From NCBI GenBank assembly GCA_963832065.1, contig CAWHSV010000008.1, positions 80,671 through 144,670 of the forward strand: 64,000 nt of DNA. Direction: 5' to 3'. Origin of the DNA: an uncultured Actinomycetes bacterium. Lineage in GTDB: Bacteria; Actinomycetota; Thermoleophilia; Solirubrobacterales; 70-9. The stretch's first letter is position 1; each line of letters begins with the position of its first letter. The translations under genes and the position numbers were made by a program. Below the pieces are notes generated by a model. It did not search any database. It was given only the letters and a program-made list of their open reading frames with translations, and had not been told where the DNA came from. Of this stretch, positions 37,856 to 44,251 are shown in pieces.

Positions 37856-38215
37856 CTACTCGTCGGCTCTGTCTTCGTCCTCGGTCGAACCGAGAAACTG
37901 AATCGCCGACTCATGATCGGTAACCGTTGAAACGTAGAAGTGCTCGAGAGAGCCTCGGACCGGCCGCGTGTCCGTTAGAGCGATGGCGCCTTCTTCGCGG
38001 AGCACTCTGGTGTGGTAGCTGATGTTGCTGACAGGAAGACAAAAGGCTCTACCGAGCTCGCTGGGACTTCGGGCCTCGCCGGCCCTGTGAAGCGCTCGGA
38101 GGATTCTGCGACGAAGCGGATGGTTCAAAGCCCTCAGCAGCTCGCCGCTGCGTGGCAGTTTGCCGCGCCTGGTCGGAAAGCTGGCGTTTCGGCCTTGAGA
38201 TTTTTCCACTTTCAC
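37856..38215 (-). CDS. ArsR-like winged-helix DNA-binding protein
   Basis: LLRALNHPLRRRILRALHRAGEARSPSELGRAFCLPVSNISYHTRVLREEGAI. GC is lower than in the flanks. The GTG start overlaps the upstream stop (TAGTG). Confidence 0.7.
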   Translation of the reverse strand: MKVEKSQGRNASFPTRRGKLPRSGELLRALNHPLRRRILRALHRAGEARSPSELGRAFCLPVSNISYHTRVLREEGAIALTDTRPVRGSLEHFYVSTVTDHESAIQFLGSTEDEDRADE

Positions 38216-38694
38216 TACTCACGCTGACCCCGGCGCCGTTGGCCAAGTCGAATACTGATTGCAGGACGAGGGATGCGAAACATCGTGAGAAGCTTGGAAG
38301 AGTGGCGACGACCTGCGTTCCCCTTGTGATTTTGATCGAGCTGCTCGGTAGTCCGCAGAGCCGACTGCACATATGGATCCCCTGAGAGTCCGGAACGATA
38401 GAAAGGTGGGGTTCCGGGCGGGCGGTGAGAGGCGTCGTGGATTACGCCCCCGGACCGCTCTAAGACCTGAGCGTGGTAGTAGACCTCGCTCAGAGTGAAC
38501 TCAGGCACCTCACACGCGATCTCGCGGGCGCTCAGGGGACGCTCGCTTCGGTCGAGGGTACGCAGGATTTCCCGGCGAATGGGATTTTCGAGGGCGCGCT
38601 GAAGCTTCGGCCCTAACGCTGCGGCGATCTCGTTCGGCAGCCTTCCCTCGCCACCTCCGAGACTCTTCTGATTCATAGTGGAAAGTGCAAGCAT
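38215..38694 (-). CDS. ArsR-like winged-helix DNA-binding protein with a basic C-terminal tail
   Basis: LQRALENPIRREILRTLDRSERPLSAREIACEVPEFTLSEVYYHAQVLERSGGV. Confidence 0.65.
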   Translation of the reverse strand: MLALSTMNQKSLGGGEGRLPNEIAAALGPKLQRALENPIRREILRTLDRSERPLSAREIACEVPEFTLSEVYYHAQVLERSGGVIHDASHRPPGTPPFYRSGLSGDPYVQSALRTTEQLDQNHKGNAGRRHSSKLLTMFRIPRPAISIRLGQRRRGQRE

Positions 38695-38822
38695 GTCCTA
38701 GATTTGTCCGAATCCCGTGAGCAGTAAGGGATGATCGTGCAGTCTAGGGCGGCAGAAACGCTTTACGAAGGCAGTCTGTACCAGCAATCAGCCGTTAACC
38801 AGCGTCCGCCCTGACAGGGGAC

Positions 38823-39599
38823 CTAGCGAGGCTGCTGACAGAGATAGACGGCCTTGGTGTGGAGATCTTCATCGAGAACGGGGTGAAGATCGCCGTCCAG
38901 CTCGCCGAAGACGCCCAGGGATCGAAGTCCCACCGCGTCGATCGCGGTCAACACCTCGTCTTCGGAGAAGTGACGCTGGCGATGGACATGCGCCGTGCCC
39001 GACTCGCCTTTCGCCTCGAACCTTGCCCGGTTCATCGAGCCCGGCGCGACGTCCTCCGGGGACATCTGCCCGTTCCAGACGAAGCGTCTTCCGTTCTGCT
39101 CGACGACGTGTTCGTTGCTGAAGAAGGTCCGGTAGGTGGCGAGAGTGTTGAGGTCAAAGAGCACGATCCCGCTGGGCGCCAGGTTCCGGAGCATTCCCGC
39201 CAGGGAAGCTTTGAGCTCCTCGACGCTGAGCAGGTAGTTGATCGCGTCGTTCACGGCCCAGATCAGATCGAACTCGCCCAGAGCGGGCAGCTGACGCATG
39301 TCGGCCTCAAGCAGCGTCGCGCCCTCGCCGACCTTGGAACGAGCGACATCGAGCATCGCCGGGGAGATGTCGCAGGCGGTTACGCGCCAGCCACGGTCGA
39401 GCATCGGCAGGAAGCTGAGCCCGGTCCCGCAGCCGACGTCCAGCAGTCGATCGCCTTCGAGGCCCATCTCGTGTGCCTTGGCCAAAAGCCGACCGGTCCA
39501 CCGCTCGTACATGTACCCACGGTTGAAGTCGTCATATGACGAGGCGTAGGCATCGTAAGCCTCCTTTGCCGATCCGCCGGCTTCCCCCGGAGCCATCAT
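38823..39599 (-). CDS. Class I SAM-dependent methyltransferase (258 aa), translationally coupled to the upstream E1-like gene
   Basis: The ATG at 39597-39599 overlaps the upstream TGA (ATGA). Motif I is RLLDVGCGTGLSFLPMLDRGWRVTACDISPAML. The ORF-track entry 38823..40340 over-extends the N-terminus. Confidence 0.8.
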   Translation of the reverse strand: MMAPGEAGGSAKEAYDAYASSYDDFNRGYMYERWTGRLLAKAHEMGLEGDRLLDVGCGTGLSFLPMLDRGWRVTACDISPAMLDVARSKVGEGATLLEADMRQLPALGEFDLIWAVNDAINYLLSVEELKASLAGMLRNLAPSGIVLFDLNTLATYRTFFSNEHVVEQNGRRFVWNGQMSPEDVAPGSMNRARFEAKGESGTAHVHRQRHFSEDEVLTAIDAVGLRSLGVFGELDGDLHPVLDEDLHTKAVYLCQQPR

Positions 39600-40678
39600 C
39601 TCGTCGGGGCGGGTTGAAGCTGCGAGCAGACCGGGCAGGTGGGCTCCGGCGCCACCTCGAAGCGCTCGACTTCCATTGTGCGCAGGTCGAAGAGGTAGCC
39701 CGCGCCCAGCATCGGCGGCGCGACCAGCCCAGTCAGGAAGTGCATTGCTTCCGCGCCGACCAAACCACCGACCAGCCCACACGCGGGGCCCAGGGTCGCG
39801 GCCGGCGAGGGCTTGGCGCGGCGTTGGGCGATCGCCACGTCGTAGAGCGGGTATTCCCGGCGGTAGGCGATGTCCTGGCAGCCGAAGCAGCCGGTCTGGC
39901 CCGGGACGTAGAGCGGCCCGGCTCGGGCCATGGGCGGGAAGTGGCTCATCGCTATGTAGGGGACCCCCGCCTCGAAGCAGGCTGCGTTGCACCAGTACTC
40001 GATCTCGTGCGCAGGCCAGTCGGCGGCATCGACCACGAGGTCGGCGCCGGCGATGAAGGCGGCCAGCTGCGCCTGGCTCTCGACACGTTGCGCGACCGCC
40101 TCCACCTCGATCCTCGAGTTGAAGGCGCGAAGTCGCTCCGCCGCCGCTTCGACCTTGAGCCGGCCGATGTCCGCCTCGGCGTACTGGATCTGGCGATTGA
40201 GATTGCTCTCCTCCACGCGGTCGCCGTCGATCAGGCGGAGCGCTCCAACCCCGCAGCAGGCCAGCTCCCAGGCGACGCGCCCGCCGAGCCCTCCCACGCC
40301 GAGCACGACGACGCGAGCCTCTCGCAGCCGAGTCTGGCATTCCGATGGCGTTACCCCGCCGGTGGAGCTGAGGTCGCTGAAATATCGAAGCTGGCGGTCG
40401 AAGCGGGCAAGGTCGGCCGGCGGTACCCGGTCGTCGTCGTCGGCGTCCTCGAGCAGGTCCATCTCCTGCATCTGCGCGATCACGTCTGCGACCTCCCGCG
40501 GGCCAAAGCGCGCGTCCAGCTCGTCCCTCGAAGCACTCCCGTCGAGGGCCTGCAAAAGGTCCCTTTCGCGCTCGCCGGGCCGTTCGATGCGGATGTCGTC
40601 GGCGCTGGACCGCATGAGCACGAGGTCGCCGTTAGGCGCCTCGATCTGCTCGATCGTCCTTTTCAGGCGGGGTCGCAT
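39596..40678 (-). CDS. E1/ThiF/MoeB/MccB-like adenylyltransferase with an N-terminal ~90-aa PqqD/RRE-like peptide-binding domain
   Basis: RFDRQLRYF, the nucleotide loop VVVLGVGGLGGRVAWELACCGVG, DGDRVEESNLNRQ, and the zinc motif CFGC...CPVC. The N-terminus has beta strands followed by LLQALDGSASRDELDARF...VADVIAQMQEMDLLE. Confidence 0.85.
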   Translation of the reverse strand: MRPRLKRTIEQIEAPNGDLVLMRSSADDIRIERPGERERDLLQALDGSASRDELDARFGPREVADVIAQMQEMDLLEDADDDDRVPPADLARFDRQLRYFSDLSSTGGVTPSECQTRLREARVVVLGVGGLGGRVAWELACCGVGALRLIDGDRVEESNLNRQIQYAEADIGRLKVEAAAERLRAFNSRIEVEAVAQRVESQAQLAAFIAGADLVVDAADWPAHEIEYWCNAACFEAGVPYIAMSHFPPMARAGPLYVPGQTGCFGCQDIAYRREYPLYDVAIAQRRAKPSPAATLGPACGLVGGLVGAEAMHFLTGLVAPPMLGAGYLFDLRTMEVERFEVAPEPTCPVCSQLQPAPTR

Positions 40679-40724
40679 TACTTTCTACACTGTTTGTTAG
40701 TAGGGGAATTTCTTTGACACTGCT

Positions 40725-40744
40725 CCCGGGTCAGGCGACCCGGG
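40725..40744 (-). promoter_or_regulatory. Intercistronic stem-loop between the precursor genes and the E1-like gene (possible attenuator or mRNA-stabilising hairpin)
   Basis: CCCGGGTC-loop(4)-GACCCGGG, a perfect 8-bp GC-rich stem. It lies 18 nt after the second peptide stop and 46 nt before the E1-like ATG. No U-tract follows. Confidence 0.5.
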
Positions 40745-40762
40745 ATGCAGCAGAAACTCCAC

Positions 40763-40822
40763 TCAGCCGCCCTTCGACGTGCTGACCGCTGGAAACGTCG
40801 CCTTCGTGGCATCGAATTTCAC
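40763..40822 (-). CDS. Candidate RiPP precursor peptide 2 (19 aa): MKFDATKATFPAVSTSKGG
   Basis: GGAGGTG (40829-40835), a 6-nt spacer, then a GTG start, 19 codons and TGA. It is a paralogue of 40901..40960. It does not appear in the ORF track. Confidence 0.55.
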   Translation of the reverse strand: MKFDATKATFPAVSTSKGG

Positions 40823-40900
40823 CCTGCTCACCTCCTCTGGAAGAAGCCCCAGGCGGAGGCAGCCCCCCGGTAGCGATGCCGTCGGAGGGCCACCACGCGC

Positions 40901-40960
40901 TCAGTTGCCCTTCGTCGTGCCCATCGCGGGCAATGTCGCCTTCGTGGCATCGAATTTCAC
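40901..40960 (-). CDS. Candidate RiPP precursor peptide 1 (19 aa): MKFDATKATLPAMGTTKGN
   Basis: GGAGGTG (40967-40973), a 6-nt spacer, then a GTG start, 19 codons and TGA. The C-terminal residue is Asn. It does not appear in the ORF track. Confidence 0.55.
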   Translation of the reverse strand: MKFDATKATLPAMGTTKGN

Positions 40961-41120
40961 CCTGCTCACCTCCCTTCAACCCTGTGAGAGTCTGAGCAAG
41001 AATGACTTATCACTGGCAGCTTTAGCCACCGATGACGAAATAAGTCTGCATTTTGGAAGGAAAACCGATTACTGTCCGCTAGCCGCAGCCATTCAGGCGT
41101 CACTGAGAAGTGGAGGCAAC

Positions 41121-42374
41121 GTGGGTCCTCAAGAGAAAGATGCCGCGCCGCTGTTTTTGATCGAAGCCAAGCTGGCCAAGGCGCTCGCCAACCCCTGGCG
41201 CAACCGGATCTTGATGGAGCTTCACCTCCAATCGATGAGCCCAAAGCAGTTCAGCGAAAGGTTCGGCGGCGACCTGACGCTCATTGCACGTTATTTCCGC
41301 GAGCTCAAGGAGTGGGACTTCGTCGAAGTTGCGGAAGAACTGCGCGGTGGTAAACGGCGCGGTGCTATCGAGAAGGTATATCGAGCCACTCAGCGTGTTC
41401 ACTTCGATACGGCAACCTGGGAGCTCTTACCGCGTTACCTGAGAGCGGAGTGCTCTGGGGCGATTTTGCAGAGCCTCATCCTTCGCATCGTCCAAGCGAT
41501 CGAAGGGGGGACGTTTGACGCTGAGGTGGATCGCCATCTTTCTTGGCGAACACTTCCCTTTGACCGACGGGCATGGACGGAATACGTCACGCGGCTGGAC
41601 GAGGTTCTCGCCTGGGTCGCAGAGCTGGAGGCGGAATCGGCCGCACGCATCGCGGCAACGGAAAGCGAGGCCATACCATTGACCGTCGCGCTCTTGGCCT
41701 TTCGGTCGCCGTCTGAGCCTGTTGAGATTTCCAACTCTTTACAAGAGAGCTCAGAGCTTGAGCAGGCAAGTCAGCCTCCCAGCGCGCCACCATTTCTTAT
41801 CAGTGCGCAAATGGCAAAAGCTTTGGCGAATCCATGGCGCAACCAGATCTTGACGGAGCTTCACGTCCGCCCGATGAGCCCCAATCAGTTCGCTAAAGAG
41901 CGCGGGGGCCCAGAGCTGGCAACCATCGCACGCTATTTTCGCCAGCTAAAAGAATGGGGGTACCTCGAGGTAGCGGAAGAACTGCGAGGAGGGAGGAGGC
42001 GAGGAGGAGTCGAGAAGGTCTATCGCGCGATGCCGCGTGCCCATTTCGACATAGCTATGTGGGAACGTCTTCCCCGCCACCTGAGAGCTGTAGGGTCGGG
42101 GAAGACCTTGGACCACCTCATCCGTCGGATCGATCAGGCAGTCACATTGGATACGTTCGATGCCGATTTGGATCGGCATCTCTCATGGAAAGCAATCTGG
42201 CTGGACCGGCAAGCGTGGATCGAGTACGTCATCCGGCTCGATGAGCTCCTGACCTGGACGAATGACCTCGAAATCCAGGCGGCGCAACGCTTGGCCGAGA
42301 TGAGAGAGAAGCCGACCCCGACAACGGTTGCGCTTATGGCGTTTCGTGCGCCCGACCGTCGTATCCTGGATTGA
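41121..42374 (+). CDS. Protein made of two tandem copies of an ArsR-like winged-helix module plus a helical domain
   Basis: AKALANPWRNRILMELH...ARYFRELKEWDFVEVAEELRGGKRRG.IEKVYRA...DRHLSWR recurs as AKALANPWRNQILTELH...ARYFRQLKEWGYLEVAEELRGGRRRG.VEKVYRA...DRHLSWK. The proposed start is GTG 41121, after GGAGG. The ORF-track start at 40779 reads through the repeats. Confidence 0.7.
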   Translation: MGPQEKDAAPLFLIEAKLAKALANPWRNRILMELHLQSMSPKQFSERFGGDLTLIARYFRELKEWDFVEVAEELRGGKRRGAIEKVYRATQRVHFDTATWELLPRYLRAECSGAILQSLILRIVQAIEGGTFDAEVDRHLSWRTLPFDRRAWTEYVTRLDEVLAWVAELEAESAARIAATESEAIPLTVALLAFRSPSEPVEISNSLQESSELEQASQPPSAPPFLISAQMAKALANPWRNQILTELHVRPMSPNQFAKERGGPELATIARYFRQLKEWGYLEVAEELRGGRRRGGVEKVYRAMPRAHFDIAMWERLPRHLRAVGSGKTLDHLIRRIDQAVTLDTFDADLDRHLSWKAIWLDRQAWIEYVIRLDELLTWTNDLEIQAAQRLAEMREKPTPTTVALMAFRAPDRRILD

Positions 42375-42445: not shown

Positions 42446-44251
42446 ATGGGCGCCCACGATGCCGAGCTGATCCTGATCGCCGGCTCGTTGTTGGCGGCCG
42501 GGATCATCGGGGCGCTGCTGGCCGACCGGGTCCGCGTCCCCGGCCTACTGCTCTTCCTCGGCCTTGGCATGCTTGCCGGCTCGCAGGGGATCGGCGGCAT
42601 CGAGTTCGACGACCCCGGGCTCGCGCGCACGCTTGGGACGATCGCCCTGATCCTGATCCTCTTCGAGGGCGGGCTGACCGCCGGCTGGTCGGAGATTCGG
42701 CCGGTGCTGGGAACCGCCGCCTCGCTGGCGACGGTGGGCACGGCGGTCACGGCGGTCATCGCCGGCCTCGCGGCGAAGGAGATCTTCGAGCTCAGCACCC
42801 TGGAAGGGATGCTGGTCGGCGCCGCGATCGCCGCCACCGACTCCGCCGCGATCTTTGCCGTGCTGCGCCGCTCGACGCTCGAGAAACGGCTCGCGCGCGC
42901 GCTCGAGGGCGAGTCGGGAATGAACGACCCGGTGGCATTGCTGCTGGTGATCGGCTTCATCGAATGGATCCAGGAGCCGGGCTTCGGCTTCGTCGACATG
43001 ATCGGGCTGCTGGCGCTGAAACTGGCGATCGGGACGGCGATCGGGGTGGCGGTCGGCCGCCTCGCCGTCGCCGGGCTGGACCGGGTGCGGTTGCCTACCG
43101 ACGGGATCTACCCGGTGGCGACGATCGCCATCGCCAGCCTCTCCTTCGGCCTGGCCGAGGTCGCGCACGGCTCCGGGTTTCTCGCCGTGTACCTGACGGC
43201 GCTGGCGCTCGGCTCGGCCCGGATCCCCGCCCGGCGCACGATCGTCGCCTTCCACGAAGGACTCGGCTGGGTCGCCCAGATCTCCCTCTTCATCCTGCTG
43301 GGGCTGCTGGTCTTCCCGAGCACGCTCGGCGACGTGGCGCTGAAGGGGCTGGCGCTCTCGGCTGTCCTGATCGTGCTGGCCAGGCCGGTCGCGGCCTTTG
43401 CCGCCACGGCGTTCGCGCCGCTGAACCTGAGGGAGCGGCTGATGCTCGGCTGGGCCGGCCTGCGCGGCGGCGCGCCGATCTGGCTCGCGACCTTCCCGGT
43501 CGTGGCGGGGATCGGCAGCGGCGAGCAGCTGTTCGCGATCGTCTTCTTCGTCGTGGTCAGCTCGACCCTGGTCCAGGGCGCCTCCTTCGAGCCGCTGGCC
43601 AAGCGGCTCGGCCTCACCACCGACGAGCCGTCGCTGCCGCGGCGGCTGCTCGAGTCGGGGCGGATCCGCCGCATGGGCGGCGACGTGATCGCCTATCGCT
43701 TACCCCCGGGCGCGGCGGCGGCCGGCCATTACGTGCGTGAGCTGCAGCTGCCGCGCGAGGCGCTGGTCAACGTGATCGTCCGCGACGGTCACGCGATCCC
43801 GCCGCGGGGCTCGACGGAACTGCGCGAGGGAGACGAGCTGCACATCCTCGTCCGCGGCGAGCTGCGCGACGAGGTCGAGGAGCAGACGAAGGTTTGGACG
43901 AAGGGTCCCGTGGGCCGCCCCGCCCCGCCGCCGCTGCCGCACCGCGCCGCCTCGCAGATCTTCTCGGTGCGGCCGGCGCGCCAGGACGACGATCCGCTGG
44001 CGCGAGGCGAGGTCGACGGGATCGCGGTGCTGGCGGTCCTGCGCAGTCGCCGCGACGGGGTTGGGGTGATGGCGGCGCTGGCCGACGGCCGCTACGCGGT
44101 GACCGGCGAAAAGGTGATCGCGGTCGGCGGTCGGCGGTCCCTGGCGGACTGGTGCGAGCGGCGCGCCTCACGGGCCGACGTCGATCAGGCGGAGCGCGCC
44201 TGGTGGCAAGAGGTCACCGGCGCGCTGATCGCCCGCGGGCGGAGGCTCTGA
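42446..44251 (+). CDS. K+/H+ antiporter (CPA1, NhaP2/CvrA-like) with a C-terminal RCK_C/TrkA-C domain
   Basis: Intact 601-aa ORF with about 12 TM segments, ILFEGGL and ATDSAAIFAVL. The RCK_C domain reads YRLPPG...LQLPREALVNVIVRDGHAIPPRGSTELREGDELHILV. Confidence 0.8.
   Translation: MGAHDAELILIAGSLLAAGIIGALLADRVRVPGLLLFLGLGMLAGSQGIGGIEFDDPGLARTLGTIALILILFEGGLTAGWSEIRPVLGTAASLATVGTAVTAVIAGLAAKEIFELSTLEGMLVGAAIAATDSAAIFAVLRRSTLEKRLARALEGESGMNDPVALLLVIGFIEWIQEPGFGFVDMIGLLALKLAIGTAIGVAVGRLAVAGLDRVRLPTDGIYPVATIAIASLSFGLAEVAHGSGFLAVYLTALALGSARIPARRTIVAFHEGLGWVAQISLFILLGLLVFPSTLGDVALKGLALSAVLIVLARPVAAFAATAFAPLNLRERLMLGWAGLRGGAPIWLATFPVVAGIGSGEQLFAIVFFVVVSSTLVQGASFEPLAKRLGLTTDEPSLPRRLLESGRIRRMGGDVIAYRLPPGAAAAGHYVRELQLPREALVNVIVRDGHAIPPRGSTELREGDELHILVRGELRDEVEEQTKVWTKGPVGRPAPPPLPHRAASQIFSVRPARQDDDPLARGEVDGIAVLAVLRSRRDGVGVMAALADGRYAVTGEKVIAVGGRRSLADWCERRASRADVDQAERAWWQEVTGALIARGRRL

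Follow-up and report, generated by a model that had tools for sequence, protein, structure and literature searches.

What would a single E1-like adenylating enzyme do with two neighbouring ribosomal peptides that differ at the very end on which its chemistry would be expected to act? This question is raised by a locus in the stretch of DNA analysed here (64,000 nt of contig CAWHSV010000008.1 from an uncultured bacterium of the Solirubrobacterales; hereafter, the window), where two 19-codon genes, pepA and pepB, stand upstream of a gene for an MccB-like enzyme and encode peptides ending in ...KGN and ...KGG, respectively. Both peptide types are conserved in related genomes of soil Actinomycetota and are under selection, and the peptide genes are inherited together with the enzyme and a regulator. 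With moderate confidence, we read the locus as an operon resembling those for peptides that are made on ribosomes and modified after translation (RiPPs), in which the MccB-like enzyme would adenylate the C-termini of both peptides and the last residue would set the outcome. It appears to us more probable than this overall picture that the peptides are substrates of the enzyme, and less probable that the last residue splits the outcome.

The two peptide genes and the enzyme gene are as follows.

40901..40960, minus strand: pepA, N-type precursor peptide gene, encoding (f)MKFDATKATLPAMGTTKGN followed by a stop codon; GTG start; preceded by GGGAGGTGA
40763..40822, minus strand: pepB, G-type precursor peptide gene, encoding (f)MKFDATKATFPAVSTSKGG followed by a stop codon; GTG start; preceded by AGGAGGTGA
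39596..40678, minus strand: 360-aa adenylating enzyme, E1/ThiF-like and of the MccB/PaaA type (Pfam ThiF, 1e-51)

Each peptide gene has its own GGAGG ribosome-binding site, and both are preceded by GGAGGTGAGCAGG. The codons of pepA are GTG AAA TTC GAT GCC ACG AAG GCG ACA TTG CCC GCG ATG GGC ACG ACG AAG GGC AAC TGA; pepB shares the first eight and continues ACG TTT CCA GCG GTC AGC ACG TCG AAG GGC GGC TGA. A mechanical list of open reading frames (ORFs) gave both peptides as 22 aa, started at an in-frame GTG inside the Shine-Dalgarno (SD) sequence; their length is taken as 19 aa because orthologues carry ATG at the position of the second GTG. Compared codon by codon, the genes show two silent differences (ACA/ACG and CCC/CCA), four replacements (TTG/TTT, L/F; ATG/GTC, M/V, with two changes; GGC/AGC, G/S; ACG/TCG, T/S) and a last codon that is AAC in one and GGC in the other (N/G, two changes). 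The repeated unit, a 74-nt direct repeat that is 88% identical at 138-nt spacing, runs from the SD sequence to just past the stop codon, with similarity ending 1-2 nt beyond the stop, and 9/9 differences fall within the last 33 of 72 aligned nucleotides (P = 4.5e-4 vs. a uniform spread). No third ORF of this kind is present in the 64-kb window. Between loci and within type, synonymous differences per site (pS) amount to 0.56, and the ratio of nonsynonymous to synonymous differences (pN/pS) stands at 0.23 over the nine C-terminal codons vs. 0.56 over the nine N-terminal codons. By these sequence features, pepA and pepB are real, selected coding genes. A preliminary description of this DNA had given the same ORF limits and the same count of nine differences (four in third positions, two of them silent), all of which were reproduced, and had proposed purifying selection in the 19-codon frame, which the low ratio in the C-terminal half bears out. 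No RNA family in Rfam matched the peptide-gene region, NCBIfam holds no model for the peptides, and a scan of the region for consensus promoters and terminators returned nothing useful.

The comparison set was assembled around the enzyme, which has 2,323 relatives at E <= 1e-5 among scored candidates. Species-representative genomes contributed at least 324 E1-encoding loci, and the best 80 of these (L001-L080), all in metagenome-assembled genomes (MAGs) of Solirubrobacterales, Conexibacteraceae, Thermoleophilia or unclassified Actinomycetota, were taken for comparison together with 7 metagenome loci from a single-protein scan and 11 loci obtained via exact-protein look-up. A narrow first peptide motif (K-F-D..K) missed almost all orthologous peptides and was widened stepwise; the final filter required Pro at position -8 or -9 (the last residue being position 0) and a basic residue at -2, and still misses variants such as MCIRSTTSVIPAAVHKQN in L027, along with copies in L085 and L093 whose 5' ends are uncertain. 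Because the filter demanded both positions, their near-invariance is partly built in, and the variety of the last residue and of position -5 was not imposed by it.

This search yielded 53 distinct peptides from 47 related loci, mostly in Solirubrobacterales MAGs, with one to four short ORFs upstream of the E1 gene at each locus, each having its own SD sequence. The peptides are 18-20 residues long, with the exception of an uncertain 17-residue TTG-start call in L002, where the G-type copy has lost its ATG (now ATC) and TTG follows two codons further downstream. Common to the 53 peptides is Pro at -8 (at -9 in two 20-residue peptides, from L069 and L093), position -2 is Lys in 51 peptides and Arg in 2, and the last residue is always small (Gly 39, Asn 11, Ser 2, Cys 1). 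More distant clades are exemplified by MKISKTEHAIPTVSIRKLG, MKIDKIFQVAPISTIHKSG, MTITVERVVPMVSIHKMG, MSLNTSQSVVPAAAIHKQN and MKISATSSAIPMVLIHKSC; outside the closest clade, the tail reads K-x-G, where x is L, H, S, I, A, M, V, N, F or Q. Since x varies in this way, Gly-Gly is limited to the closest clade, and the family as a whole has the motif K-x-G or, in fewer cases, K-x-N. The turnover of peptide repertoires is fast, as seen in L093 (2447-2850; four tandem genes, encoding an N-type, an uncertain N-type, a G-type and an N-type peptide with Ser at -5), in L085 (2590-2916; a G-type peptide, an uncertain second G-type copy and a peptide ending in ...TTRGS) and in L060 (3928-3987; a peptide ending in ...IHKSC).

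Among the closest relatives, whose E1 enzymes are 75-90% identical, two peptide types recur, with the consensus ...P-[AT]-x-G-T-[TS]-K-G-N for the N-type and ...P-A-x-S-T-[ST]-K-G-G for the G-type. Their distribution is as follows.

Both types present: the window, L002, L088 (N+G+G), L090-92 and L093 (N, uncertain N copy, G, N)
N-type only: L089, L094 and L095
G-type only: L001, L003, L004 (two copies), L007, L008, L053, L083 and others

Wherever both types occur, an N-type gene always comes first, and a G-type gene is the last before E1 except in L093. In the 3' half, genes of the same type from different genomes are 76-77% identical at the nucleotide level vs. 59-74% for N- and G-type genes that share a genome. 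The 5' half behaves otherwise: there, genes from the same locus are 73-93% alike, which equals or exceeds the likeness of unlinked genes. Therefore, the peptide cores are older than these genomes and have been kept distinct, while the leaders were homogenized or co-evolve with the enzyme of their own locus. Raw counts, in which shared ancestry is included, put Ser at -5 in 33/39 G-type vs. 1/11 N-type peptides. Because both peptide types recur in independent assemblies, the terminal N/G difference is not an assembly error; the preliminary description had argued, from the two changes in the last codon, that a single sequencing error could not explain it. The enzyme does not follow peptide type: no column of the E1 alignment separates N-containing from G-only loci, the two kinds of loci interleave in E1 identity clustering, and close enzyme pairs have different peptide content (L090, N+G, vs. 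L001, G only, 91%; L093 vs. L085, 92%). One enzyme type, therefore, serves both termini. Thus, the conservation of the termini among orthologues, which the preliminary description had named as the check to be made, holds for ...KGN and ...KGG as distinct types, and its central observation of one E1-like enzyme facing Asn- and Gly-ended mini-peptides proves to be a conserved feature.

The enzyme itself combines an N-terminal peptide-binding domain of ~90 aa (a RiPP recognition element, RRE, or 'peptide clamp') with an adenylation domain. In a sequence search of all solved structures (phmmer), MccB was the best match (2e-35), with MoeB (8e-26), ThiF and PaaA behind it; a profile of 31 family members matched MccB at 3e-49 and PaaA at 2.5e-37 over residues 2-340, including the N-terminal domain. 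An AlphaFold2 model of the enzyme has a predicted local distance difference test (pLDDT) score of 86.9, and its N-terminal 90 residues (above 90) form a strand/helix domain that superposes on the MccB clamp. The first 24 Foldseek matches of this model are MccB chains (TM 0.70-0.77, 355-371 columns), followed by PaaA; ThiF and MoeB rank after PaaA and align to the adenylation domain only. Identity to MccB is only ~25%. The earlier assignment to the MccB type is upheld by sequence, profile and predicted fold, the N-terminal peptide-binding domain included. The Gly-rich loop G127-G133, D151, R162, Q163, K175, D213 and D220 are invariant in the family alignment, as are the four Zn-site cysteines C264, C267, C348 and C351, so the enzyme looks catalytically competent and is unlikely to be a mere docking protein. 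Its crossover loop (residues 268-299) has no Cys, as in MccB; Pfam finds ThiF only, with no rhodanese domain, and the E1-E2 models of PADLOC match the Rossmann core only.

Automatic annotation gives relatives of this enzyme (P0030, P0049, P0117, P0119 and those with JGI names) other names. PGAP calls them 'TOMM precursor leader peptide-binding protein' (TOMM, thiazole/oxazole-modified microcin) via a match to the TIGR03882 domain, which in the window enzyme covers the C-terminal part (51 bits), and other automatic names include 'bacteriocin biosynthesis cyclodehydratase domain-containing protein' and 'molybdopterin-synthase adenylyltransferase'. The gene context, in which YcaO and MoaD are both missing, fits none of these names: neither YcaO nor a dehydrogenase is encoded in the window cluster or in 11 distinct Pfam-annotated loci (13 are listed, L090-92 being copies). 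An identity of the enzyme as a docking protein of TOMM/azoline RiPPs was rejected, the YcaO cyclodehydratase partner not being found in the loci examined.

Comparison with known systems places the locus close to, and outside of, several of them. The locus resembles microcin C (heptapeptide MccA and enzyme MccB) in the two-domain architecture of the enzyme, peptide clamp plus adenylation domain, in a short unstructured ribosomal peptide encoded just upstream and in one Asn-ended peptide of the two (pepA). It differs in that the peptides have 19 residues instead of 7 and most members of the family end in Gly (39/53 distinct peptides, vs. 11/53 with Asn), as pepB does, and in that genes for the MccC exporter, MccD, MccE and MccF were not found. 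The minimal mcc set is mccABC, including an MccC-type exporter (PMC12250964), and no transporter is conserved beside the module examined here; with a Gly majority terminus, no exporter and no immunity gene, the locus falls outside the mcc clusters. Escherichia coli MccB O-AMPylates MccA variants in which G, A, S or T is the last residue, with a kcat/KM that matches or exceeds the value for the wild-type Asn, and forms a stable N-P product only with Asn, the Gly acyl-AMP being captured by thiols and amines (PMC11118369, PMC13255007). The same experiments, in which MccA-N7G is presented as a non-native design mimicking ubiquitin E1, agree with the chemical significance that the preliminary description had attached to N vs. 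G for an MccB-type enzyme (PMC11118369, PMC13255007). As in the engineered MccB/MccA-N7G pair ('TeCH-tag'), an MccB-type enzyme here faces Gly instead of a terminal Asn, and a reactive peptidyl-AMP would be expected; unlike there, where the Gly substrate is man-made, Gly-ended peptides form the natural majority and are encoded beside an Asn-ended paralogue. The termini found here (G, N, S, C) and those tolerated by MccB (N, G, A, S, T) are all small, with G, N and S in common.

The characterized ThiF-like RiPP enzymes all adenylate a carboxylate, which a nucleophile then captures (PMC12596934), and EnfB amidates a peptide C-terminus with free amines (PMC11256085). With IndF (indolylamide), EnfB (imide or amidation) and the side-chain activators GrcB and PaaA, the locus shares an RRE-ThiF fusion near short precursor genes and regulators, and the likeness would extend to adenylation followed by capture by an internal or external nucleophile. 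The differences from the described ThiF-like RiPPs are that there is no transporter or peptidase and that the lineage is Solirubrobacterales; moreover, none of the published precursor types (MccA, PaaP, GRC, WWIII, NWYFI, VEGR, NICxxxK, CxxxC, GxxQY) corresponds to the motif P-x5-K-x-G/N. With an RRE-fused ThiF-like enzyme whose ATP-site residues are intact, and with conserved short precursor genes in 47 loci (though 45/80 genome loci are without them), the window system belongs, at the level of sequence, to the ThiF-like (TLAT) RiPP class. No description of a Solirubrobacterales family of such peptides was found in the literature. The system looks like an undescribed ThiF-like RiPP family and like a use by nature of an Asn-to-Gly swap so far known only from the laboratory.

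ThiF, MoeB and Uba-type E1 enzymes share with this system a homologous adenylation domain and Zn site as well as substrates with a C-terminal Gly after a basic residue at -2. Unlike in those systems, the putative substrate here is a 19-residue peptide with no beta-grasp fold, and there is no catalytic Cys, rhodanese domain or E2; a beta-grasp substrate with conserved Gly-Gly is lacking, and so is the acceptor chemistry (crossover Cys, rhodanese, E2/JAB, sulfur donor). Membership in the ThiS/MoaD/ubiquitin group fails because of fold, Gly-Gly conservation, acceptor Cys and partner genes. The suggestion made earlier that Gly-Gly marks a substrate of this group does not stand, given the K-x-G tails outside the closest clade, the lack of partner genes and a crossover loop without Cys.

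The peptide and enzyme genes are embedded in a larger block, whose other elements are as follows.

40705..40760, minus strand: GC-rich stem-loop between the peptide genes and the E1 gene, starting 2 nt after the pepB stop codon
38823..39599, minus strand: class I S-adenosylmethionine (SAM)-dependent methyltransferase, 258 aa (Pfam Methyltransf_25/11)
38215..38694, minus strand: ArsR-type winged-helix protein, 159 aa (Pfam HTH_20, 1e-7), downstream in the same orientation
37856..38215, minus strand: second small ArsR-type winged-helix protein, 119 aa (Pfam HTH_20, 2e-10, plus HTH_5)
41121..42374, plus strand: divergent two-module regulator, 417 aa if GTG at 41121 is the start (NCBIfam HTH_metalloreg, 1e-7, below cutoff)

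The stem-loop has a minimum free energy of -38 kcal/mol (z = -7.0; 0/200 shuffles fold as well); it is followed by no U-tract, was not called by the consensus terminator scan and is probably a partial terminator or an mRNA-stabilizing hairpin. A GC-rich hairpin after the last peptide gene was found in 23/23 loci examined, without conservation of its sequence. The methyltransferase gene starts within the stop codon of the E1 gene (ATGA). Amine N-methyltransferases (CypM, sugar N,N-dimethyltransferases, CalS10) are among the nearest solved relatives of its product, and the best NCBIfam match, to the daptide methyltransferase, is weak and below cutoff. A methyltransferase is present in 13/80 genome loci, independently of N/G type, and belongs to the K-G-G clade except in L032 (...KNG, opposite strand). 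The divergent regulator is built from a tandem pair of modules, ~200 aa each, that both begin with an ArsR-like winged helix, and has no Pfam match under 0.001 and no solved relative; its GTG start is deduced from an upstream GGAGG, the reading frame and orthologue lengths of 413-427 aa. Separating it from pepA is a 160-nt divergent intergenic region with a perfect 7-nt inverted repeat, GACTTAT/ATAAGTC (41004-41010 and 41040-41046, 29-nt spacing), which may be an operator and is so short that it may also have arisen by chance. Homologues of the 159-aa ArsR-type protein lie downstream of E1 or the methyltransferase in L001, L002, L004, L005 and L007, HTH_20 genes occupy the equivalent position in L088, L090 and L093-L095, and the 119-aa protein is 67% identical to the HTH_20 gene downstream of the L090 methyltransferase. 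The four ArsR/HTH_20-type winged-helix domains encoded around E1 in the window are an unusual density, and up to five helix-turn-helix (HTH) genes adjoin E1 in L093.

Peptide genes, enzyme and regulator are co-inherited. A divergent ArsR-like regulator of one or two modules is found in 33/80 genome loci, 32 of which also have peptides; three genome loci have peptides only and one has the regulator only. The 45 loci of L001-L080 with E1 alone (e.g., L016, L017, L022, L025, L028) encode a full-length enzyme, typically directly after a uracil-DNA glycosylase (UDG) gene, and have neither a peptide gene nor an ArsR-type regulator within 4 kb, the distance used for scoring both absences; substrates of these enzymes may be encoded elsewhere. 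Some genomes have an E1-only locus as well as a complete one (e.g., CAWINA, L008 and L017). The regulator-peptide-E1 block behaves as a movable unit, since flanking genes differ between loci. In the window, the block at 37856-42374 has 62-63% G+C vs. 68-77% around it and is set among housekeeping genes, with ribD and riboflavin synthase at one end and rpe, rsmB and fmt at the opposite end; its low G+C content and the differing neighbourhoods of related blocks suggest a horizontally moved islet. Its genes include no YcaO, transporter, peptidase, E2, JAB or sulfurtransferase, and the Na+/H+ exchanger at 42446..44251 has no counterpart in other loci. Among further neighbours, a ~950-aa protein with a signal-peptide-like N-terminus and without Pfam match recurs in three close relatives, where its gene lies downstream of E1 at a distance of a few genes (L090 5847-7083, L093 6768-7089, L094 5003-7080); no homologue of it was found in the window. 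The module often has metal-homeostasis genes in its vicinity (CsoR-type repressor, DUF4396, HMA P-type ATPase, cation efflux, Zip, Nramp; L093 1-602, L094 461-1377, L095 164-1085, L096 9836-12099, L097 9099-11222). Taken with the ArsR-type regulators, these genes could point to a role connected with metals or be a coincidence.

In the RiPP-like operon that we propose, two 19-residue precursors would be made from their own ribosome-binding sites, and the hairpin after the second gene would probably hold the level of peptide mRNA above that of enzyme mRNA. The N-terminal domain of the enzyme would bind the shared N-terminal half of the peptides (MKFDATKAT...), the conserved tail P(-8)...K(-2)-x-small(0) would enter the adenylation site, and the alpha-carboxylate at the C-terminus of either peptide would be adenylated with ATP. 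The fates would then diverge: in the Asn peptide, the side-chain amide is predicted to capture its own acyl-adenylate and give a succinimide, which may or may not be nucleotidylated a second time as in microcin C; for the Gly peptide there would be no self-capture, and its acyl-adenylate would need another nucleophile, either an internal one or an external amine or thiol. Ser(-5), typical of the G-type, is a data-driven internal candidate that would give a six-residue lactone. P(-8) is more likely a recognition element than a nucleophile, and the same applies to K/R(-2), because Arg can replace Lys. Where present, the methyltransferase might add an optional tailoring methylation, probably on an amine, and the divergent ArsR-type regulator would control the operon via the divergent promoter.

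Several observations weigh against this proposal. The link between Ser(-5) and terminal Gly has exceptions on both sides, namely the fourth L093 peptide (VSTSKGN), which led us to reject the rule that Ser(-5) never occurs in the N-type and to keep it as a trend only, and G-type peptides without Ser(-5) in L018, L024, L032, L034 and L058. Two peptides have Arg at -2, which makes it less likely that Lys is the nucleophile throughout the family, and the idea of Lys(-2) as a lactam-forming residue in all members was downgraded for this reason. No peptide gene lies within 4 kb at 45/80 related E1 loci, so E1 can persist without a neighbouring substrate gene. A conserved exporter, leader peptidase or immunity gene was not found near the module in the neighbourhoods examined, and, therefore, this is not a typical antibiotic RiPP cluster. 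Finally, the comparison loci are nearly all MAG or metagenome assemblies.

Among the alternatives, the one to be taken most seriously, although we regard it as a good deal less probable than the split outcome operon described above, is that a single chemistry operates on both peptides, the last residue having only to be small enough to fit. A shared capture step (macrocyclization or transfer to a common external nucleophile) would then apply to N, G, S and C ends alike, and N vs. G would tune the product with no switch of reaction. The mix of small termini across the family is in line with this, as are the lack of co-variation between E1 and peptide type, the similar kcat/KM of MccB for several small C-terminal residues, and EnfB and IndF, which cyclize or amidate via the C-terminal carboxylate regardless of the last side chain. 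However, the two types stay distinct across genomes, with a correlated change at -5 and with homogenized 5' halves, which suggests selection for difference, and an Asn beside an acyl-adenylate would be expected to cyclize fast, as in MccB. It is improbable that the small ORFs are regulatory leader peptides (upstream ORFs, uORFs) that steer read-through of the hairpin into the E1 gene and are no substrates at all; this is the least likely of the readings considered here. The strong hairpin 2 nt past the pepB stop codon and the comparable hairpins in all 23 loci examined would suit such a role, but selection acts at the amino-acid level and most strongly at the C-terminus, the genes occur in one to four tandem copies with an SD sequence each, and they are coupled to an enzyme with a peptide-binding domain. 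A hairpin also lies between the precursor and enzyme genes of the mcc operon, and the hairpin would thus be equally compatible with a precursor gene.

The termini have two further readings, each of them borrowed from a known system and each unlikely. In a ubiquitin- or sulfur-carrier-like system, the enzyme would activate ...KGG, and the peptide would then become a mini-tag on the lysine of a protein, perhaps of one of the co-encoded regulators, or be made into a thiocarboxylate. The basic-x-Gly tail indeed recalls the R-G-G of ubiquitin, MccB with MccA-N7G gives E1-like thioester and amide in vitro, no exporter is present and winged-helix proteins abound nearby; yet GG is not conserved in a family whose motif is K-x-G, 19 residues cannot make a beta-grasp fold, the crossover loop has no Cys, PADLOC models hit the Rossmann core only, and no conserved E2, JAB/MPN, rhodanese, sulfurtransferase or cysteine desulfurase was found in any of the neighbourhoods examined. 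Scarcely different in probability is the reading in which the Asn peptide yields a true Trojan-horse antibiotic of the microcin C type and the Gly peptide is a decoy, competitor or degenerate copy. MccB is the closest characterized enzyme, pepA ends in Asn, and a separate methyltransferase is reminiscent of tailoring in some mcc clusters; against this, Gly is the dominant terminus of the family, many loci are G-type only, the G-type is under purifying selection, the loci examined contain neither an MccC-type exporter nor any immunity gene of the MccE, MccF or HIT kind, and there is no MccS/CmoA partner for carboxymethylation. The existence of N-only and G-only loci likewise argues against an obligatory decoy relationship. 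We also consider, as a long shot, a natural MccB-type enzyme with two modes chosen by the last residue of the substrate, which would convert the Asn peptide to a succinimide or peptidyl-nucleotide and activate the Gly peptide like ubiquitin, so that it could be passed on to an acceptor with an amine or thiol, perhaps a lysine in a protein such as one of the co-encoded winged-helix regulators. If true, this would amount to a 'mini-ubiquitin' tag of 19 residues that needs no E2, and to a living system midway between E1 enzymes that modify peptides and those that conjugate proteins.

Overall, MccB has been treated as an exception among E1-like enzymes in acting on short Asn-ended peptides, and the replacement of this Asn by Gly is a recent engineering trick that makes it behave like a ubiquitin E1. 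The locus described here and its relatives suggest that MccB-like enzymes have natural Gly-ended substrates, often beside an Asn-ended sibling, and they set right a misleading automatic name for these enzymes, 'TOMM precursor leader peptide-binding protein'. If our reading of the operon is true, the family would add a new precursor type, and probably a new C-terminal chemistry, to the ThiF-like RiPP class, and would offer ready-made orthogonal enzyme/tag pairs for C-terminal bioconjugation. It would also provide a natural system for how one residue steers the fate of an acyl-adenylate, which bears on the evolution of E1 chemistry.

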